From positions 702-64,701 of the forward strand of contig MWBO01000031.1 of the NCBI GenBank assembly GCA_002071685.1: a stretch of 64,000 bases of DNA. The letters are read 5' to 3'. The translations under genes and the position numbers were made by a program. Shown here one piece after another: positions 3,287-63,971 of the stretch; the first letter of the stretch is position 1; every line of letters begins with the position of its first letter. The stretch comes from a candidate division WS2 bacterium ADurb.Bin280 (GTDB lineage Bacteria; Patescibacteriota; UBA1384; DTJR01). The notes under the pieces were generated by a model, which was given only the letters and a program-made list of their open reading frames with translations, was not told the origin of the DNA and did not search any database.

Positions 3287-3301
3287 GATATTGGCTATAT
3301 T
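3273..3301 (+). promoter_or_regulatory. candidate promoter for island B ORF, overlapping the divergent UDG promoter
   Basis: TTGCCT (3273-3278), 17-nt spacer, TATATT (3296-3301), about 50 nt upstream of ATG 3352. Confidence 0.35.
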
Positions 3302-3351
3302 TAACTCTCGACTTTGTCGAGAATGCCGTATCACCTCGGGAGGTGCGACAA

Positions 3352-3822
3352 ATGGCCGTTGCGGAGAAAAGGAAGGTGCAGCATCCGACATTTGCGCTCG
3401 ACTATGCTGTTTTGAGCGCAATGCTGGACGCAATGAAGTTGCCCGAAGATCTGAAAGAGTCAATCGCTCTGATCCCCGGGCTTCCCAAACCTGACGTTTC
3501 GCAGATCCTCGCAAGAGTATGTTCGGAGGTCGGATCTCCAAGCCACCGGATCCTCTGCAGGAGCCGCGGACTCGGAAAAGAGGAGCCGTTGAGCCAGTAC
3601 GTCGCCTTCAAAAGGATTGAGGCGGCTGATCGCATCATCCTCCGCGATAACGCCCTCGTAATCACTGGGCACCACTCACAGTGGCCAGAATACCTCGAGA
3701 TTCGGGTGAAAAATGTGGGCGACACAGGAGGTGTCGACGAGGGTGTCTTCGCAGTACTTCTGGCGACGGCCCTCTGGCGATGCAATCACCGCCTGATCAT
3801 CAACAGGTGCGAGGGTGACTAG
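3352..3822 (+). CDS. hypothetical protein, GC-rich island B (156 aa from ATG 3352)
   Basis: GGGAGGTG SD at 3338-3345, 6 nt before the ATG. The ORF is GC-rich, and its TAG stop is followed by a hairpin terminator. No family recognised. Confidence 0.5.
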   Translation: MAVAEKRKVQHPTFALDYAVLSAMLDAMKLPEDLKESIALIPGLPKPDVSQILARVCSEVGSPSHRILCRSRGLGKEEPLSQYVAFKRIEAADRIILRDNALVITGHHSQWPEYLEIRVKNVGDTGGVDEGVFAVLLATALWRCNHRLIINRCEGD

Positions 3823-3848
3823 TTCGCTTCGCGCACCGTCTCAATTCC

Positions 3849-3888
3849 GGCCGGGTGGCCTCAAAACCGCCCGGCCGTCGTCGTTTTG
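3849..3888 (+). terminator. intrinsic terminator of island B ORF
   Basis: GGCCGGGTGG / CCGCCCGGCC stem (one G-U pair), 8-nt loop, tail GTCGTCGTTTTGG. Confidence 0.6.
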
Positions 3889-3938
3889 GAGCAAGCCGAA
3901 TATCAAAAATACCTTCAAAAATACTTTTTATCTAAAAA

Positions 3939-24596: not shown

Positions 24597-24625
24597 AATA
24601 TATTAAAACATCGTTTAAATATCAA
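24597..24625 (-). promoter_or_regulatory. candidate promoter of the femAB-pheST operon
   Basis: On the minus strand: TTGATA (24625-24620), 17-nt spacer, TATATT (24602-24597). Confidence 0.4.
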
Positions 24626-24640
24626 GACGGGGTTAAGTTG

Positions 24641-24707
24641 AGGCAAAAGCTAAACGGCTCATACGAGTGAGCCGTTTAAATACCACGGCCCCGGGTTTAC
24701 CGGGGCC
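24641..24707 (-). terminator. tandem hairpins terminating island C ORF
   Basis: First hairpin: GGCCCCGG-GTTTA-CCGGGGCC (24687-24707). Second hairpin: AAACGGCTCA-6 nt-TGAGCCGTTT (24652-24677), followed on the minus strand by AGCTTTTGCC. Confidence 0.55.
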
Positions 24708-24732
24708 TGAAGAGATGTACAAAGCCGAGGGT

Positions 24733-25173
24733 TCACGGGGCTTCGAAGACCTCCAGCACCCGAGCGTTGGAGAGCTCGAAGCCAAATCCGCCTCCGCTCT
24801 CGATCGAGCTCGAGAGAGCCTCCCCGAACAACCAGAGACGATCAGCGTGGCGGAGCTGGACAGGACGGATGGCAAACGACTGTCGCCCGACCGGTAAAAC
24901 CCGACAGGGCATCTTGAGGTAGCCATCCTGCTCGAACTTCCGCCTCTCCCGATCTCCGCTCAGGGTGAGCGGAAAGTAAGGAATAACTGCCCGAGCATCA
25001 CCCAAACGAAAGTGCAGATCGTAACGTCCCGAATCGACCATCCGGTCCGCACAGATGATAACAGTGGTGCTGGTGGGGCTGGCAAGAACGGCGCGCACTG
25101 ACAAGACGTCCGCCTCCTCGCCGTTTGATACACCGACGACGAGCAGGCACAGCACGACACAAATCGCCTTCAT
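24733..25173 (-). CDS. hypothetical secreted protein, GC-rich island C
   Basis: ATG 25173 has GGAG 8 nt upstream. The N-terminus MKAICVVLCLLVVGVSNG looks like a signal peptide. No family recognised. Confidence 0.5.
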   Translation of the reverse strand: MKAICVVLCLLVVGVSNGEEADVLSVRAVLASPTSTTVIICADRMVDSGRYDLHFRLGDARAVIPYFPLTLSGDRERRKFEQDGYLKMPCRVLPVGRQSFAIRPVQLRHADRLWLFGEALSSSIESGGGFGFELSNARVLEVFEAP

Positions 25174-25214
25174 GGGCCTGACTCCAAGTTTATTGAACGC
25201 CAAACGCTATGGCG

Positions 25215-48058: not shown

Positions 48059-49579
48059 ATGCCTGATGAAAAACAAATCAATAACGATCAAAATGAAGAA
48101 CTTGACACCAAAGAGGATGGTCCCGACTCTTTGCAAGATGCTTACGACGACTACGAATCAATACGAGATTTAATAAAAAAACCATCTGATAATAAAAATA
48201 AAGAAGACTCTAGTCAATCAAATCAAAAAGAAAACGAGCCTACCGCCGGTGAACGAGGGGCTAAAGAAGAACAAGCCGACCTCCGTCAAGCAGATAGCCA
48301 AAATGTAAACCCCAATCAATCGCCAGAGGGACAGGATCGGCGCCCAACCCAAGAAACCAAAGCACCACAAAATACAAATCCTCGTGCCAAGGAAAACCAG
48401 ACCGGCCAAGCAACGAAGGATGCAAGCGAAAGCAACCCAAAGTCAAGTGGGGCCGAAGAAGCTCGAGCACCGGAGAGAGCGCCTCAAGCACAAACCCAGA
48501 ACGCCAAAGGCACTCCGGCGACACAAGGCGAACAGGGTGCCAAGGGGGCACTTTCTCAAGCCGGCAAGACAGGAGCTAGCGCTGAAAAAAACCTAGCCGG
48601 CCAAGGACTGAAGGCTGGAGCAAAACAAGCGGGTAAGGAAGTGGCCAAAGAAGGAGCGCTTGCCGCCAGTCGCACAGCCGCGGCAGCCGCTGCGCCAGAA
48701 TCTATGGGAGCTTCCCTTGCCGCCCAAGCCGGAATCGAGGCTGCCTCGCGATCAGTCGGATTTATTCAAAAAAATTTTTGGCTGATTCTAACTATCGTAA
48801 TCGCCTTATCTTTTGTAATCGGCGGAGGATTTGCCTACACCTACTTGGCTAAATTCTTTTTCTTCAATAAATTGGGAGGCGAGGAGAAGCAATTGTTAAA
48901 CGATCTTCGAGATGGCGTCAAGCAAGAGCGTCTAGTGCTTCAAAACGATGAGGATATTCAAAAAATCGAAAAAGGCGTGGGAAGTTTTGTCGCAACTAGC
49001 TTGATAAACGAACTTAGCAATAACCACGAAAAGATCAAAATAAACTACCTCGGTTCGCAAGATTCCTCAAGTGGCAACGAGCCCTACGAGTTTGATGTTC
49101 TGGGAGCTGATATAATAAAGTGTGTGAACTTGGCAAGCTCATCAAAAGCGGGCGAGTTTTTTGTTGACTTTGGCCAAAGCGCTTGGCAACAAGAACTCAA
49201 GAATCTTGGGGCAAATACTCTTTGCGCCGTCGATTATTATCCGAAAATCGAGCAAGCAAAGACTGGCAAATACTCTGACCATTATCAAATCAGAGAGTTC
49301 AGCGCCGATCAAGCTGATGCCTTTATTGATAAAATAATTGCTTATAAGCAGGCACAAATAATTGATGAAACAGCCGACATTGCCGCTAACGAGCAAAAAC
49401 AGCAAGACAATTTGCTCGCACCGCCTGATGTCATCAGAGTTAGCGAGCAGGTGGTAAGCGGTTTGCCTCCCCAATTAATAGAAAAGGTTAAATCAGCCAA
49501 AAACTACTCGTCATTCTCTTTGGCAACCTTCCCCAAGGGTGCAAGTAATACGGCAATGCACATTAGTTATCTAGAATGA
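48059..49579 (+). CDS. bitopic protein: disordered N-terminal region, one TM helix, C-terminal globular domain (operon gene 5)
   Basis: Low-complexity Q/A/G/K-rich first 230 aa, a TM helix FWLILTIVIALSFVIGGGFAY, then about 250 aa of unknown domain. Confidence 0.5.
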   Translation: MPDEKQINNDQNEELDTKEDGPDSLQDAYDDYESIRDLIKKPSDNKNKEDSSQSNQKENEPTAGERGAKEEQADLRQADSQNVNPNQSPEGQDRRPTQETKAPQNTNPRAKENQTGQATKDASESNPKSSGAEEARAPERAPQAQTQNAKGTPATQGEQGAKGALSQAGKTGASAEKNLAGQGLKAGAKQAGKEVAKEGALAASRTAAAAAAPESMGASLAAQAGIEAASRSVGFIQKNFWLILTIVIALSFVIGGGFAYTYLAKFFFFNKLGGEEKQLLNDLRDGVKQERLVLQNDEDIQKIEKGVGSFVATSLINELSNNHEKIKINYLGSQDSSSGNEPYEFDVLGADIIKCVNLASSSKAGEFFVDFGQSAWQQELKNLGANTLCAVDYYPKIEQAKTGKYSDHYQIREFSADQADAFIDKIIAYKQAQIIDETADIAANEQKQQDNLLAPPDVIRVSEQVVSGLPPQLIEKVKSAKNYSSFSLATFPKGASNTAMHISYLE

Positions 49580-53596: not shown

Positions 53597-53633
53597 ATGA
53601 TAAATTTAACAGTTCGGACAAAATAATGAAAGA

Positions 53634-53666
53634 GGGCGGTGTGTGCGCATTGCGCACACACCGCCC
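53634..53666 (-). terminator. intrinsic terminator of the island D bicistron
   Basis: 15-bp perfect stem GGGCGGTGTGTGCGC / GCGCACACACCGCCC with a 3-nt loop. The minus-strand tail is TCTTTCATTATTTT. Confidence 0.6.
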
Positions 53667-53675
53667 CTTTGATTC

Positions 53676-54218
53676 TCAGCGAGCCCGAGCAAGCAGTAGC
53701 CGGCCGGTCGCTTGCATTTCCTGTCCGCGCTCAAGGCGATCGCCAACCTGCGAAGCGGCGAACGCCTTATACGCATAGGCGCGGTCGCCGTTACAGCACT
53801 CAAGCACTATCCGGAAGACGTAGTTGCCGGACCGGCCAACCTTCCTGACGATCTCAAGTGCCGCCTCGCCTGCGATCTTGCACTGGCGTCCTTCTTCGTT
53901 CCAGCCCACCAGAAAATCCAGGGCCTCCGCGCCACCATTGGCGCTCGGGACGATCACCAGAACATTCTGGTAGCCAGGGTTGTGTGTCGCATTTTCGCGA
54001 ACAGAGCAAATGGCGTTCCTCTCAAGCTTCCACGGGGGATTGGGCCGACTGTTGTCGATCAGAGCATTCGCTCCGACAACAAATGACCCGCCGTCCTTAC
54101 CGGCAAGTCCGCGAATCCTTTGTATTGCGCCAGATGTGACGTAAACGCCCTGGCCGTTTGGCGCCCTCCCAATCCCATATTTAGCGCCTGACGGCAGCTC
54201 TAGTGTCGCCTCTACCAT
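53676..54218 (-). CDS. hypothetical protein, GC-rich island D, gene 2 (180 aa)
   Basis: Its ATG lies inside the ATGGTAG overlap with gene 1. Codon structure looks coding, and a terminator lies 9 nt downstream. No family recognised. Confidence 0.5.
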   Translation of the reverse strand: MVEATLELPSGAKYGIGRAPNGQGVYVTSGAIQRIRGLAGKDGGSFVVGANALIDNSRPNPPWKLERNAICSVRENATHNPGYQNVLVIVPSANGGAEALDFLVGWNEEGRQCKIAGEAALEIVRKVGRSGNYVFRIVLECCNGDRAYAYKAFAASQVGDRLERGQEMQATGRLLLARAR

Positions 54219-54565
54219 TTCGCGACCTCCATGATCCTTGCGGGCTCGCCGATGATGAAGTATACCCGACCGGACTTGTCTGGATCGTGGATGATCATCG
54301 ACAAGCCAAGCTCGAGGTACAACTCTTCTTTCGGCTGATTCAGAAGAATCCTGGCCACAGCTGCCGCTGCTTGTCCGGCGAAAACGATCACCGCTTCGCT
54401 GACCGCGCTAGCCAATGTGTTGCGCGGTAGCTTGAGCTGCTGCTCGATCGCCTCCTTGCTGAGATGACAATGTACAAGACAGGGATCGCACGGCATCGCC
54501 AACAGGCAATCGTAGCCAGCTGGCACCCGCCACCACAAAACCTCACCATGAGCGAGGACGTACAT
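54212..54565 (-). CDS. hypothetical protein, GC-rich island D, gene 1 (117 aa)
   Basis: GGGAGGAG SD 6 nt upstream of ATG 54565. No family recognised. Confidence 0.5.
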   Translation of the reverse strand: MYVLAHGEVLWWRVPAGYDCLLAMPCDPCLVHCHLSKEAIEQQLKLPRNTLASAVSEAVIVFAGQAAAAVARILLNQPKEELYLELGLSMIIHDPDKSGRVYFIIGEPARIMEVAKW

Positions 54566-54652
54566 CGCACACTCCTCCCGCCAACCAAAGATAGGTACGA
54601 AAACGTATATTTTTTATCAAAAAATAGATCTTAAATCAATGCAAAAAGCTTT

Positions 54653-58068: not shown

Positions 58069-58424
58069 AAATTAAAAGTTAAAAATCAAAAATTAAAATG
58101 ATAATTAAAAAATAAAAAAGATTACAAAATTATTTTCTAGTAGCCAAAGCTACAGACAATGATAGAACCAGAGGGGCTTAATTGCCTGCCCTGTCGTAGT
58201 TAGCTAAATTGCTAACGAAGGAGGGCGAGGCAGCCCCTATGGTTCTATCGAATCCTTACGGCGCACGCTTGTTTCAAGAGCAAAAAATAAGCTTTTCTTT
58301 CTGGCAAACCCTCTCGACAAGTTTGCGAGCTTCCGCCAGAAGCAAAAAGCTTATTTTTCTTCCTGAAACTTTATTACATTACAAATACTTGGATTCTTAA
58401 TCCTTCATTCATCATTCTTAATTC
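58069..58424 (-). repeat. non-coding element copy L, inverted homolog of copy R
   Basis: Shares with 61382-61792 (as reverse complement) the GAATTAAGAATG head, a long AT-rich hairpin around the conserved CGCAAACTTGTCG, a GC-rich second hairpin (58161-58249) and the TTTTTAACTTTTAATTT tail. Confidence 0.55.
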
Positions 58425-58545
58425 TGAGATCTTAATTTGATAATTGCTTAATTGAGTTTGGGAGGGACGCGACCTCCCCAGAACGATGTTTCGAAAAGTG
58501 TGAGCCCCCAATGTGAGCTCGCGTCCCTCGGGTGTCCCGCGCGCG

Positions 58546-58716
58546 TTAGACACCGCCGACACAGGCGTTGTGCTCTTCGGCGCTCCTTTCGGCGCGCTCA
58601 AGCACAGCTAGCTCTACAGGCGTCAGAGCTTGACCGCTGTCCCTCTTCTCCGCGAGACTCGCGATGCGCTGGGCCTTTTCGGCATTTGCTTGTGCGGCTC
58701 TCGAACCTGCTGACAT
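58546..58716 (-). CDS. small hypothetical protein (56 aa), GC-rich island E
   Basis: AGGGAGGA SD 4-5 nt upstream of ATG 58716. Predicted helical, Ala/Glu/Arg-rich. No family recognised. Confidence 0.4.
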   Translation of the reverse strand: MSAGSRAAQANAEKAQRIASLAEKRDSGQALTPVELAVLERAERSAEEHNACVGGV

Positions 58717-58786
58717 GTCGTCCTCCCTGCGGTTCTGCCCCCGCAAGCGGGGGGTCGTTCTCCGTCGCGCGCGACGGGATATGATA

Positions 58787-58815
58787 ATTACAGCAAAAAA
58801 TTTCTAACAAGTCAA
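58787..58815 (-). promoter_or_regulatory. candidate promoter of island E ORF
   Basis: On the minus strand: TTGACT (58815-58810), 17-nt spacer, TGTAAT (58792-58787). Overlaps the stop of the upstream oxidoreductase gene. Confidence 0.35.
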
Positions 58816-61804: not shown

Positions 61805-62905
61805 CTACTTCCCATGGTGAAAATAGATAACATCCGCTTCATTGACAACATAGTCCTTGCCCTCAAGACGGACCTTCCCCGCCTCTTTCGACCCCTTCCA
61901 ACCTCCGAGTGTAATGAAATCTTGGTATGAAACTACTTCGGCTTTGATAAATTTATGCTCGAAATCTCCGTGAATCGCCCCGGCCGCCTGCGGAGCCTTG
62001 GAGCCCTTTTTTATCTCCCAAGCCCTCGCCTCCATTTCGCCTGCGGTGAAAAACGAGATCAATCCGAGCGTCGTGTATGCCGACCTGATTAGGCGATTGA
62101 GCCCCGGCTCTTCGAGCCCTAAATCGCTCAAATATTCTTGACGGTCAGATTCCATGAGATTATTGAGCTCTGATTCGGTCTTGGCACAAATCACCGCGAC
62201 CTCTTCGGTTTTCACTAGATCCTCAAGATCGAAGCGTTCAATAATCTCCTGCGGATCGCTGGTAGCATTTTCTTCCGAAACATTAAATACATAAAGAAAT
62301 GGCTTCAAGGTGAGAAAATTCGCCTCCTTAAGCAAGTCCGCCTCCTCCTCGCTCAAAGATGCTTCAATCGCCGGCCTTGATTTTTCAAAAGTTTCCAGAA
62401 CCTTCTGATAAGCAACTGTCTTTTTGGTCGCCAATTTATCCCCTGATCGAACATCTTTTTGAATAGCCGACAATCTTTTGTTTAGCGTATCAGTATCGGA
62501 CAGAATCAGTTCGGTAATGATCGTCTCAATATCATTTCTGGGTGATGGATTGGACGACACATGCATCACATCATCGTTTTTAAATATCCGAACCACCATG
62601 GCAATCGCGTCAACTTCGCGAATATGTGAAAGAAATTTATTTCCAAGCCCCTCGCCCTTATGTGCCCCCTCAATCAATCCGGCAATATCTACAAATCTAA
62701 CCGTTGCATTGACTATCTGCTTTGAATTTTCCACCTCTTTCAAATGTTCGAGACGATCATCCGGCACATCAACAATGCCGATATTTGGGTCTATCGTGGT
62801 AAATGCAAAATTTGCCGCCTCCGCCAACTCGCTCTTGAGCATGGCATTAAACAGCGTCGATTTGCCAACATTAGGAAGCCCCACAATACCTATACTAAGC
62901 GACAT
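61805..62905 (-). CDS. ychF: redox-regulated ATPase YchF
   Basis: GIVGLPNVGKSTLFNA P-loop, a TGS-like C-terminus and full-length similarity to YchF/OLA1. Confidence 0.9.
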   Translation of the reverse strand: MSLSIGIVGLPNVGKSTLFNAMLKSELAEAANFAFTTIDPNIGIVDVPDDRLEHLKEVENSKQIVNATVRFVDIAGLIEGAHKGEGLGNKFLSHIREVDAIAMVVRIFKNDDVMHVSSNPSPRNDIETIITELILSDTDTLNKRLSAIQKDVRSGDKLATKKTVAYQKVLETFEKSRPAIEASLSEEEADLLKEANFLTLKPFLYVFNVSEENATSDPQEIIERFDLEDLVKTEEVAVICAKTESELNNLMESDRQEYLSDLGLEEPGLNRLIRSAYTTLGLISFFTAGEMEARAWEIKKGSKAPQAAGAIHGDFEHKFIKAEVVSYQDFITLGGWKGSKEAGKVRLEGKDYVVNEADVIYFHHGK

Positions 62906-63013
62906 TTCTGAAAACCTCCAAGATTAAGTTTCTTCACAAACAAGTGCAGTCCCAACAAAGCGTGCACTGAAAGTAGAGGACGCAGTCCCTTTTTCAGTAA
63001 ACGCGACGTGGGA

Positions 63014-63054
63014 CCAACATTAGGAAGCCCTACAACTCCGATTGATAAAGACAT
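63014..63054 (-). pseudogene. orphan duplicate of the first 14 codons of ychF
   Basis: 31/41 nt match 62865-62905, and the first 17 nt are identical. It encodes MSLSIGVVGLPNVG, compared with MSLSIGIVGLPNVG in ychF, then loses homology. Confidence 0.55.
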
Positions 63055-63119
63055 AAATGACTCAATAATTAAAAAACTCAAACCACAAGGCTCATAATAA
63101 CAGGTTTGGAGAGATTCGT

Positions 63120-63145
63120 AAACGGCTCATTTGAGTGAGCCGTTT
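63120..63145. repeat. second copy of the AAACGGCTCA/TGAGCCGTTT hairpin
   Basis: Same 10-bp stem as 24652-24677. The loops differ at 2 of 6 nt (TTTGAG vs TACGAG). Confidence 0.7.
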
Positions 63146-63156
63146 ATTTTCGAGAT

Positions 63157-63195
63157 AAAAAAAAAGGGGGCGCGCTCCGTTAAGGAGCTGCCCCC
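63157..63195 (-). terminator. intrinsic terminator of the island F bicistron
   Basis: On the minus strand: GGGGGCAGCTCC-TTAAC-GGAGCGCGCCCCC followed by T9. It lies 16 nt after the stop at 63212. Confidence 0.65.
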
Positions 63196-63211
63196 GAGCA
63201 CTACGATACTG

Positions 63212-63559
63212 CTAGGGCTCGTTCACCCCGATTAGTTCGAACTCAACGACCCGATCGTCCGGAAGGGCAATGGCGAAATCTTGGTCACCACCTCCCCGAC
63301 GATAGATGCGAAGGTCGCTGTAGAAGCGCGTACCTTTGCAAATCGGCAGACTGTGAGCGGGTATCAATCCGCTCCCGACTGAGCGTGGCGGGCTCGAAAG
63401 CTCCACGACATGCACGAGCAGACCTTCGCCACTCGCTTCCTCGACACGTACAGCATATGACCTGTAGCTCCCCTTGTGTCCAATCTTCAGGCGAAACGTT
63501 CTACCCTCACAGGGGACTCCAGCAACAAGGTCAACCACTGCGTTGGCTTGAGCGTCCAA
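63212..63559 (-). CDS. hypothetical protein, GC-rich island F, gene 2 (115 aa, TTG start)
   Basis: GC-rich ORF with GAGG upstream and a strong terminator downstream. No family recognised. Confidence 0.45.
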   Translation of the reverse strand: MDAQANAVVDLVAGVPCEGRTFRLKIGHKGSYRSYAVRVEEASGEGLLVHVVELSSPPRSVGSGLIPAHSLPICKGTRFYSDLRIYRRGGGDQDFAIALPDDRVVEFELIGVNEP

Positions 63560-63587
63560 CTTCGCATCACCTCGAATCCTGTCTTCT

Positions 63588-63971
63588 TCAACAAGGCCTG
63601 AGCCTGCACTCAGGATACTGCGACAAGCAGTCCGTGATATCGAAGATCTCAGCGATCATTTCGCCGGTCTCGGCGATCACGACACCCTGATGATTCGATG
63701 CTTTCTCAAAACGCGCAGGAAGATACCGCCTCCCAGTTCTGATCGGAATGAGGGGGTAGGGCAACATCACCTCGTTGGTCAGATCGCCTTCCTGAAGTCG
63801 CCCAAGGATACTATCCTTGAACCACCGATCGTGGCTGAAGTAATAGATCCTTGCGCTCCCTCTTGCGGTAGCTCCCTCGCTCCCGACTACTTTGATCAGA
63901 TAGATGCGACCGGCTCCATCAGGACCGGAGATCGGCCTCACACCGATTGAGGCGGCAGTTGCGATTGGCAA
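63588..63971 (-). CDS. hypothetical protein, GC-rich island F, gene 1 (127 aa, TTG start)
   Basis: GAGGGAG SD 9 nt upstream of TTG 63971. No family recognised. The island continues to the window edge. Confidence 0.45.
   Translation of the reverse strand: MPIATAASIGVRPISGPDGAGRIYLIKVVGSEGATARGSARIYYFSHDRWFKDSILGRLQEGDLTNEVMLPYPLIPIRTGRRYLPARFEKASNHQGVVIAETGEMIAEIFDITDCLSQYPECRLRPC

Follow-up and report, generated by a model that had tools for sequence, protein, structure and literature searches.

The 64-kb window analysed here (the whole stretch of DNA under study, taken from contig MWBO01000031.1 of candidate division WS2 bacterium ADurb.Bin280) carries the gene of the essential GTPase YchF, and the 5' end of this gene is present twice. 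All ychF-locus coordinates below are window coordinates and refer to the minus strand. The ychF coding sequence (CDS; 61805-62905, 366 aa) was identified from the list of open reading frames (ORFs) and from the Pfam domains MMR_HSR1 and YchF-GTPase_C; its product is 100% identical to the protein named 'Ribosome-binding ATPase YchF, candidate division WS2 bacterium ADurb.Bin280', and the relatives of this protein carry the label Berkelbacteria. The first 41 nt of ychF (62865-62905) are found again, as a direct repeat 149 nt away, at 63014-63054.

The two copies of the ychF 5' end

The working start of the gene, copy B, consists of ATGTCGCTTAGTATAGGTATTGTG followed by GGGCTTCCTAATGTTGG (62865-62905), and the upstream 'orphan', copy A, consists of ATGTCTTTATCAATCGGAGTTGTA followed by the same GGGCTTCCTAATGTTGG (63014-63054). 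Our recount confirmed what a first-pass annotation of this DNA had reported, namely that the copies match at 31 of 41 positions, that 17 nt (the final ones, GGGCTTCCTAATGTTGG) are identical and that nearly all differences are synonymous, with one Ile/Val change. All ten nucleotide differences, nine of them synonymous and one Val/Ile, lie within codons 2-8. Expressed in codons, all seven that follow the ATG differ (six synonymously, including Leu TTA/CTT and Ser TCA/AGT, and one as Val/Ile) and the next five are identical. Given seven differing codons out of twelve, the probability of exactly this partition is 1/792 by our own arithmetic, and that of any contiguous block of five identical codons is 8/792. 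From their sequences, both copies seem to be 5' ends shaped by purifying selection.

The 17-mer core occurs exactly twice in the 64 kb (0.04 occurrences expected; two were reached in 0/100 shuffles), so that the search for it elsewhere, which the first-pass annotation had suggested, turned up no third copy in the window. The same five codons vary at synonymous sites between the ychF genes of relatives; therefore, the identity of the core is specific to this genome and does not reflect conservation at the nucleotide level. Beyond the core, similarity between A and B is not significant (local score 13 against a shuffle mean of 14.8), which bears out the earlier claim that homology ends after codon 14: copy A continues as GTTGG/TCCC and copy B as GTTGG/CAAA, and by this comparison the repeats have sharp boundaries. 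An apparent 12/14 match past codon 14, considered as decayed, pseudogene-like homology, was not above shuffles.

In terms of an integrated element, the exact 17-mer of copy B (62865-62881) is on the attR-like side and runs on into the ychF body, and that of copy A (63014-63030) is on the attL-like side and is directly followed by non-ychF sequence. The 24 nt that start copy B (62882-62905; ATG plus seven codons, MSLSIGIV) now open the CDS and are called imported on the grounds of their Shine-Dalgarno (SD) and spacer context. Their counterpart in copy A (63031-63054; ATG plus seven codons, MSLSIGVV) would be the resident, now orphaned ychF start. The two-copy arrangement is no assembly artefact, as three assemblies or samples agree: a Logan contig (L001, SRR17648133) shows 100% identity over 1396 nt spanning both copies, and NCBI contig JAKJEJ010000003.1 (L077) shows 100% identity over 11,111 nt with the two-copy arrangement included.

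The spacer, its hairpin and the orphan ORF

Core A and the working ATG are separated by a spacer of 108 nt (62906-63013), a foreign and unique sequence. As the first-pass annotation had proposed, the spacer supplies the SD of ychF: the motif GGAGG (62915-62919), read from the sequence, lies 9 nt before the working ATG and would have been brought by the insert. No other copy of the spacer was found in the window or in the ~26 relative loci compared, two pieces of it had no exact match among IMG/VR viral contigs, and a degenerate attL pattern had no match there either. The peptide that it encodes, the tail of the orphan ORF described below, retrieved only itself from among 5.8 billion proteins. 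Similarity of the spacer to the ychF CDS was not significant, nor was its similarity to the 3' end of a recombinase gene that adjoins ychF in a related contig (L078, see below).

The last GG of core A together with the first 66 nt of the spacer form an imperfect hairpin of 68 nt (62948-63015), with an RNA fold of -31.2 kcal/mol (z = -3.8, 0/200 shuffles as stable) and a DNA fold at z = -3.2. The sequence GGGACTGC occurs only twice in the 64 kb, both times in the spacer (62946-62953 and 62982-62989), and both occurrences are counted in the hairpin. The direct repeat of GCAGTCCC that had been noted in the spacer is thus present, and in two copies only, but it is part of the 68-nt hairpin. A terminator scan made no call in the hairpin or spacer, and an Rfam scan returned nothing at gathering score, its sole match being a chance-level small RNA (E = 0.47) outside the spacer. 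The orphan ORF (62890-63054) comprises 54 codons, MSLSIGVVGLPNVG plus 40 unrelated residues, and its stop lies 13 nt inside ychF; it is called as a gene in two assemblies (P0121) and has no Pfam match.

Two further readings of the spacer were rejected. A third, degenerate copy of the ychF start (TTGTTGGGACTGC against TTGTGGGACTGC of the relative L023) gave a best p of 0.04-0.06, uncorrected, in 14 comparisons, and is not significant. The hairpin was also considered as an integron attC site, GTCCCAC and GTTGGGA each matching the R''/R' consensus (RYYYAAC...GTTRRRY) at 6/7 positions by eye; this was dismissed on geometry, the repeat boundary being 2 nt outside the hairpin and not inside R'. The accompanying integron test found no tyrosine recombinase like the ychF-associated phage integrase in the window.

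Copy A stands in the native context of ychF

Alignment of the ychF 5' regions of relatives, a check set beforehand to tell which copy is ancestral, identified copy A, with its native context, as the resident one. In the closest relative found, L023 (YchF 84% identical at the amino acid and 77% at the nucleotide level), ychF is present once and is not interrupted. The 80 nt that precede it can be aligned with the 77 nt preceding copy A, the first 17 nt being identical; both stretches contain the same CCAAACCTGTTAT box, an AT-rich leader and one half of a 26-nt hairpin. A promoter scan placed the putative native ychF promoter at 63094-63122 (TTTACG-17-TATTAT with an extended TG), within a conserved CCAAACCTGTTATTAT box that is kept upstream of ychF in L012, L023, L024, L026, L028 and L030. 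It had been suggested that the orphan copy was once a functional 5' end and came from a different allele or lineage; that it was once coding stands, but its standing behind an L023-like native promoter and leader speaks against a foreign origin.

In L012, L024, L026, L028 and L030, a AACCTGTTAnnAT box lies 6-7 nt before the ychF ATG, with no SD there. This box is extended -10-like and immediately 5' of the ATG, and its counterpart in the window is at 63094-63109. Because it directly precedes the ATG, leaderless ychF mRNAs are implied in most relatives, with a leader of ~40 nt in the clade of the window and L023.

No second copy of the G[LM]PNVG type was found in any relative's ychF locus examined, the site being single-copy and, by this comparison, empty throughout. 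Scans of genome and metagenome contigs for YchF itself yielded mainly distant relatives. Neither the tandem arrangement nor an orphan copy within a longer conserved regulatory leader, which the first-pass annotation had named as observations that would tell against its proposal, was seen in the relatives. The ychF body is syntenic with that of relatives, as are the genes downstream of it (for a 286-aa proline-rich protein, a 133-aa protein and a Pyr_redox_2 protein). These sequences are most simply read as a resident locus (promoter, copy A and gene body) into which 149 bp, from the end of core A to the end of core B, were inserted, i.e. the 108-nt spacer with its GGAGG, ATG-B, seven codons and the second core. 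Since its SD and spacer are absent from all relatives, it is the working start that we assign as imported, and the two copies thus exchange the roles implied in the first-pass annotation.

The interval between a PRC-domain gene and ychF holds 0 to ~7 kb of differing genes in L024, L026, L027, L028, L030, L071 and L073; these include genes for a methyltransferase, Zip, radical SAM and adh_short proteins, among others, and the interval looks like a hot spot of gene content.

A large serine recombinase family at the ychF start in Patescibacteria

In contig L078 (YchF 64% identical), a gene for a 536-aa large serine recombinase (LSR; Resolvase, Recombinase and Zn_ribbon_recom domains; L078:1347-2957) shares 53 nt with ychF from the ATG on; HTH_17 and Omega-repressor genes lie before it, the adjacent HTH_17 gene being a candidate for a recombination directionality factor. 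The TAA stop of the recombinase gene falls on the Gly-Lys codons of ychF (GTGGG/TAA/GAG), which is the position where the A/B homology of the window ends: at this P-loop junction, the divergence after GTTGG in the window is equivalent to GG/TAA in L078. A second contig, that of P0008 (ERZ1426829), has a 556-aa LSR gene overlapping ychF by 59 nt.

The L078 recombinase has >500 homologues at E <= 1e-20, and the named ones are from Patescibacteria. Within the last 32 residues, 102 of the best 120 homologues (P0122-P0241) carry the -1-frame translation of the ychF GIVGLP codons, against 2/2400 control windows, and the common stopping points of the ORFs (26 + 18 + 50 cases) fit CCT-AAY, GGT-AAR or a position about five codons further. 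These tails and stop positions indicate that the LSR family adjoins the ychF start and reads into it. Five homologues (P0126, P0129, P0147, P0171 and P0176) have a tail in which a segment resembling the ychF start occurs twice in tandem, at a distance of 63-72 nt, and a GGAG-like (SD-like) motif stands before the second; short duplications of the ychF start thus recur at this site.

The N-terminus of YchF itself differs in such contigs. In L078 (P0030; L078:2905-4050) it reads MSHCNLAVG and not MSLSIG, and P0011, whose contig is probably also that of the LSR P0131, has MAHCNLAVG on another YchF backbone; the two proteins are 73% identical to each other, and each is 81-88% identical to clade mates with the normal MSLSIG N-terminus. 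Because the same aberrant N-terminus is found on two backbones whose clade mates are normal, the element would supply the first YchF codons (M[AS]HCNLAV), and these are apparently dictated by the overlapping recombinase reading frame. Together, such comparisons strongly support integration at the ychF start in relatives, with intact elements using the same site. The crossover in L078 was not located by comparison with L013 or L030, both being too distant, and searches of viral contigs found no members of the LSR family.

Traces of an LSR gene in the window were considered and rejected. The -1 frame upstream of ATG-B has only 13 codons, between a TGA and a TAG; a supposed 3'-end relic in the 40 nt before ATG-B (GTGAAGAAACTTAA against L078 GTGAAAACTTAA) gave p = 0.32; and a supposed relic peptide, NLILEVFRNVA, compared with the family's IPLE..NVA, gave no match to the hidden Markov model (HMM) of the family C-terminus.

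In-frame insertions of 14-32 residues at differing positions were seen in the YchF proteins P0020, P0021, P0030, P0045 and P0051. One of them, 'PVRD...ISNG', is in both P0020 and P0021 at different sites, and these insertions may be small in-frame elements.

A probable scar of site-specific integration

In our reading, the locus is probably a decayed scar, left by an element that integrated site-specifically (Campbell-type) at the core, supplied a replacement start and later lost its interior. Direct repeats with an identical core, an abrupt end of similarity, one repeat in the resident flank and same-site elements in relatives are all found, as such a scar would have them. Integration is the best-supported origin because the site is empty in relatives and because intact elements in the same bacterial group use the same codons. 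The first-pass annotation had likewise proposed an element that integrates into the gene and brings a replacement 5' end; the geometry, the empty site and the same-site elements favour that proposal, but the element itself is absent from the window.

Under this model, the resident gene would have comprised promoter, a leader of ~40 nt, ATG(A), core and the rest of ychF, as L023 still does. The incoming circular element would have had an attP mimicking the ychF 5' end, i.e. SD, ATG(B), seven codons, the 17-nt core and element sequence; because it enters the 5' end of a protein-coding gene, such an element has to bring correct codons as well as an SD and a start codon. A single crossover inside the core, between attP (B 5' part, core and left part of the spacer) and the resident A 5' part, core and ychF, would generate on the left an attL-like product, copy A with its core followed by element DNA, the resident start being orphaned, and on the right an attR-like product, SD, B, core and ychF. 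YchF would have stayed intact because the start of the element was fused to the gene body. The interior of the element, recombinase included, would then have been deleted down to 108 nt, among them the 68-nt hairpin at the left junction; one guess is that this hairpin may have shielded the left end of the element from read-through from the ychF promoter. Such a deletion would be tolerable only if the native promoter and the imported SD and ATG were kept, and exactly these persist.

At present, transcription would most likely start from the native promoter (~63090), with the orphan start directing translation of the 54-codon junk ORF and the imported GGAGG and ATG that of ychF, either independently or in a coupled manner. 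The model predicts that the pre-integration (empty-site) junction, copy A straight onto the ychF body, would read ...GGAGTTGTAGGGCTTCCTAATGTTGGCAAATCGACG and that the circular junction, copy B onto the spacer, would read ...GGTATTGTGGGGCTTCCTAATGTTGGTCCCACGTCG. Within this model, the crossover in the core, the type of recombinase, the interior deletion and the present-day route of expression are inferred.

A number of observations weigh against this reading. The 132 bp between the cores contain no recombinase, cargo or recognisable element remnant, contrary to what is expected of a scar, and since neither a recombinase gene nor other element genes separate or adjoin the repeats, one has to assume that the interior was deleted later, which is an extra, unobserved event. 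A tblastn search with the L078 recombinase and the ychF-associated tyrosine integrase gave no match in the window, the HMM of the LSR-family C-terminus finds no relic in the spacer, and no donor element was found in viral contigs, in the protein search with the orphan tail or in the LSR searches. The spacer is unlike the L078 junction, and the LSR-family ORF runs straight into the ATG without a separate SD, unlike the SD plus 9 nt of the window. Identity over 17 bp is more typical of tyrosine-recombinase cores, LSR sites needing only 2 bp, and dyad symmetry in the reconstructed attP is not significant (best 14/29, core-centred, ~120 centres tested). Finally, the three assemblies are identical, with no polymorphism that would indicate excision or decay. 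The LSR family demonstrably targets these codons in genomes of the Candidate Phyla Radiation (CPR); for the scar itself, a tyrosine-type element is equally possible.

The shortness of the insert and the lack of any integrase or element remnant would also fit homology-facilitated illegitimate recombination that brought in a ychF allele from another lineage. In such an event, a linear fragment carrying a leader with SD and the 5' part of ychF would have been anchored by homology inside ychF, and its other end joined illegitimately after resident nt 41, which duplicates the first 41 nt; alternatively, a tandem foreign ychF copy was gained and the resident copy then deleted from nt 42 on. Homology would likewise end at the junction, by construction, and the first 24 nt of B are as close to L023 (19/24) as those of A. 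Allele import would nevertheless leave unexplained why 17 identical nucleotides stand beside seven differing codons out of seven (the 1/792 to 8/792 above). No relative examined has a spacer-like leader, the AACCTGTTA-box arrangement being present in all of them; L023, to which the ychF body is most similar, has an upstream region that matches the one of copy A and not the spacer; and in relatives, recombinases demonstrably target this very site. We consider import of an allele unlikely. We judge it still less probable that the 132-bp unit and core are themselves a small non-autonomous mobile cassette, similar to a cis-mobilisable element (CIME) or a miniature inverted-repeat transposable element, perhaps recognised via the 68-nt hairpin, inserted in trans and possibly still excisable. 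The hairpin, far more stable than shuffles, does begin exactly at the junction, and the tandem ychF-start-like segments with SD-like GGAG in five LSR tails point the same way. Against this, the window has just one copy of the spacer, none of the loci and searches yielded another, the assemblies show no polymorphism, and we know of no recombinase that moves 150-bp circles efficiently.

The intact orphan ORF, ending 13 nt inside ychF near a good SD, and the stable hairpin could instead be taken for a selected regulatory leader, in which an upstream ORF or attenuator controls ychF translation by coupling. Such a leader would be confined to one population (100% identical across assemblies) and is absent from every relative, it has no Rfam match, the tail of the peptide has no homologues, and a duplicate saturated with synonymous changes would remain unexplained; this makes a selected leader highly improbable in our view. 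Tandem duplication by slippage followed by divergence in place, or an assembly artefact joining two alleles, would account for direct repeats only 149 nt apart. Both are effectively refuted: the spacer is unrelated to any local sequence, the codon-saturated yet protein-preserving differences (including the triple-change Ser TCA/AGT) are not expected from neutral decay of a dead copy, and the three assemblies or samples have the identical sequence.

Returning to site-specific integration, a more far-reaching version of it is conceivable, though we advance it only tentatively: a family of LSR elements, apparently undescribed and with recombinase genes that end within the P-loop codons of ychF, would exist throughout Patescibacteria, and the insert may be a minimal att-flanked remnant of it that could conceivably still be excised in trans. 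The first ~14 ychF codons would then be a dedicated attachment site in the CPR, at which element-supplied N-termini (MSLSIGIV, M[AS]HCNLAV) are swapped onto an essential GTPase.

Comparison with known elements

Integrated elements commonly leave attL/attR duplications in which the element carries a replacement for the end of the gene, the classic case being the 3' end of a tRNA gene, with protein-coding genes as further targets. The window resembles these cases in that its direct repeats share an identical core and one of them adjoins the resident flank while the other leads into the gene body, in that element-supplied sequence keeps the gene functional and in that relatives have an empty site. 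It differs from the classic cases in that its target is the 5' end of a protein-coding gene and in that there are 132 bp and no recombinase between the repeats.

CIMEs of Streptococcus thermophilus are att-flanked, cis-mobilisable remnants of integrative and conjugative elements; they are kilobases long, and their mobilisation has been demonstrated. The insert of the window is comparable in being att-flanked DNA from which recombination and transfer genes would have been lost by deletion, whereas it is 149 bp long and is known from sequence alone.

Closest in target are the LSR elements found in ychF (pipolins; L078, P0008 and P0122-P0241), which use the same gene and, in the CPR family, the same few codons. 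As proposed for the window, the CPR elements supply the first YchF codons (M[AS]HCNLAV variants). In contrast to them, the window has no LSR or detectable relic of one, it has a separate SD before the ATG, and its identity extends over 17 nt where 2 bp are needed.

ychF as an integration target outside the CPR

Outside the CPR, LSR-encoding pipolins of Actinomycetota integrate in ychF (PMC11551731), and a defective prophage of Streptococcus pneumoniae (PPH005 / ST320) uses an attB directly upstream of ychF and alters ychF expression (PMC6375853, PMC8637289). Among IMG/VR contigs, phages with tyrosine integrases are located upstream of ychF, at ~115 nt, or terminate 60-64 nt inside it. In prophages next to ychF (PPH005/ST320; L032, L039, L053, L057 and L065-L070), the integrase gene is directly upstream of ychF in the same orientation. 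Integration rearranges the expression signals of ychF there as it would have done in the window; unlike in the window, the pneumococcal attB is in the promoter region and not in the CDS, and the prophage elements are intact and encode tyrosine integrases.

The contigs L032, L039, L053, L057 and L065-L070 form a family with a 376-aa tyrosine integrase ~115 nt upstream of the ychF start, and their hosts, judged from the sequences, are probably Firmicutes. Between the integrase gene and the ychF start these contigs have direct repeats of ATTGGTACA. In four phage contigs (41-60 kb), the sequence stops at precisely the same point, 64 nt into ychF, a pattern that fits an att branch point. In a 2.6-kb viral contig (L064:350-907), 24 N-terminal codons of YchF are fused to an unrelated 185-aa ORF, between genes that are, by their translations, MazG-like and QueD/NUDIX-like; this may be the attP or attL of another ychF-targeting element.

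Implications

If the locus is the scar that we take it for, an integrative element once resided in an essential gene of a tiny-genome, Berkelbacteria-like CPR bacterium (ADurb.Bin280 lineage), nearly all of this element has been lost, and the essential gene, ychF, now runs on an imported SD and start codon. As such, the scar is a tidy, fairly ordinary, textbook-style case of a known kind. More interesting is a by-product of the analysis, the evidence that a large recombinase family uses the ychF start as its dedicated attachment site throughout Patescibacteria. With LSR ORFs that read into ychF as markers, mobile elements, which are poorly catalogued in CPR metagenome bins, could readily be located there together with their boundaries, and the natural pairs of attB and recombinase at ychF could be tested as genetic tools.

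GC-rich islands

The window contains seven GC-rich islands of 0.4-1 kb (1-600, 3301-3900, 24601-25200, 48301-48800, 53601-54600, 58401-58800 and 63101-63900), with GC up to 0.58-0.65 against ~0.41 for the genome. The last of these, island F, had been placed about 65 nt beyond copy A, which our coordinates do not support: it starts ~95 nt upstream of the ATG of A, and the 65-nt point is a conserved hairpin. Island F, ~850 bp long, is situated on the upstream side of the native promoter, the two ychF-start repeats do not delimit it, and AT-rich DNA resumes beyond the end of the window. We considered island F as the integrated element itself and rejected this, as it is outside the repeats and only ~850 bp long; the other GC islands likewise have no flanking repeats. 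In a comparison with the window, island F showed no similarity to the other islands apart from the shared hairpin, and no flanking direct repeats were found on the islands. The two islands inspected have one or two ORFs each, and the two ORFs of island F have no Pfam match.

The shared hairpin, the one that L023 has in common with the window, has a perfect stem and spans 26 nt (AAACGGCTCACTC..ATGAGCCGTTT; 63120-63145, minus strand), upstream of the promoter and at the edge of island F. A second copy lies at 24652-24677, also on the minus strand; both copies follow GC-rich islands and precede the next gene by ~100 nt. The independent contigs L001 and L023 break at or inside this hairpin, which suggests a repeated or variable junction.

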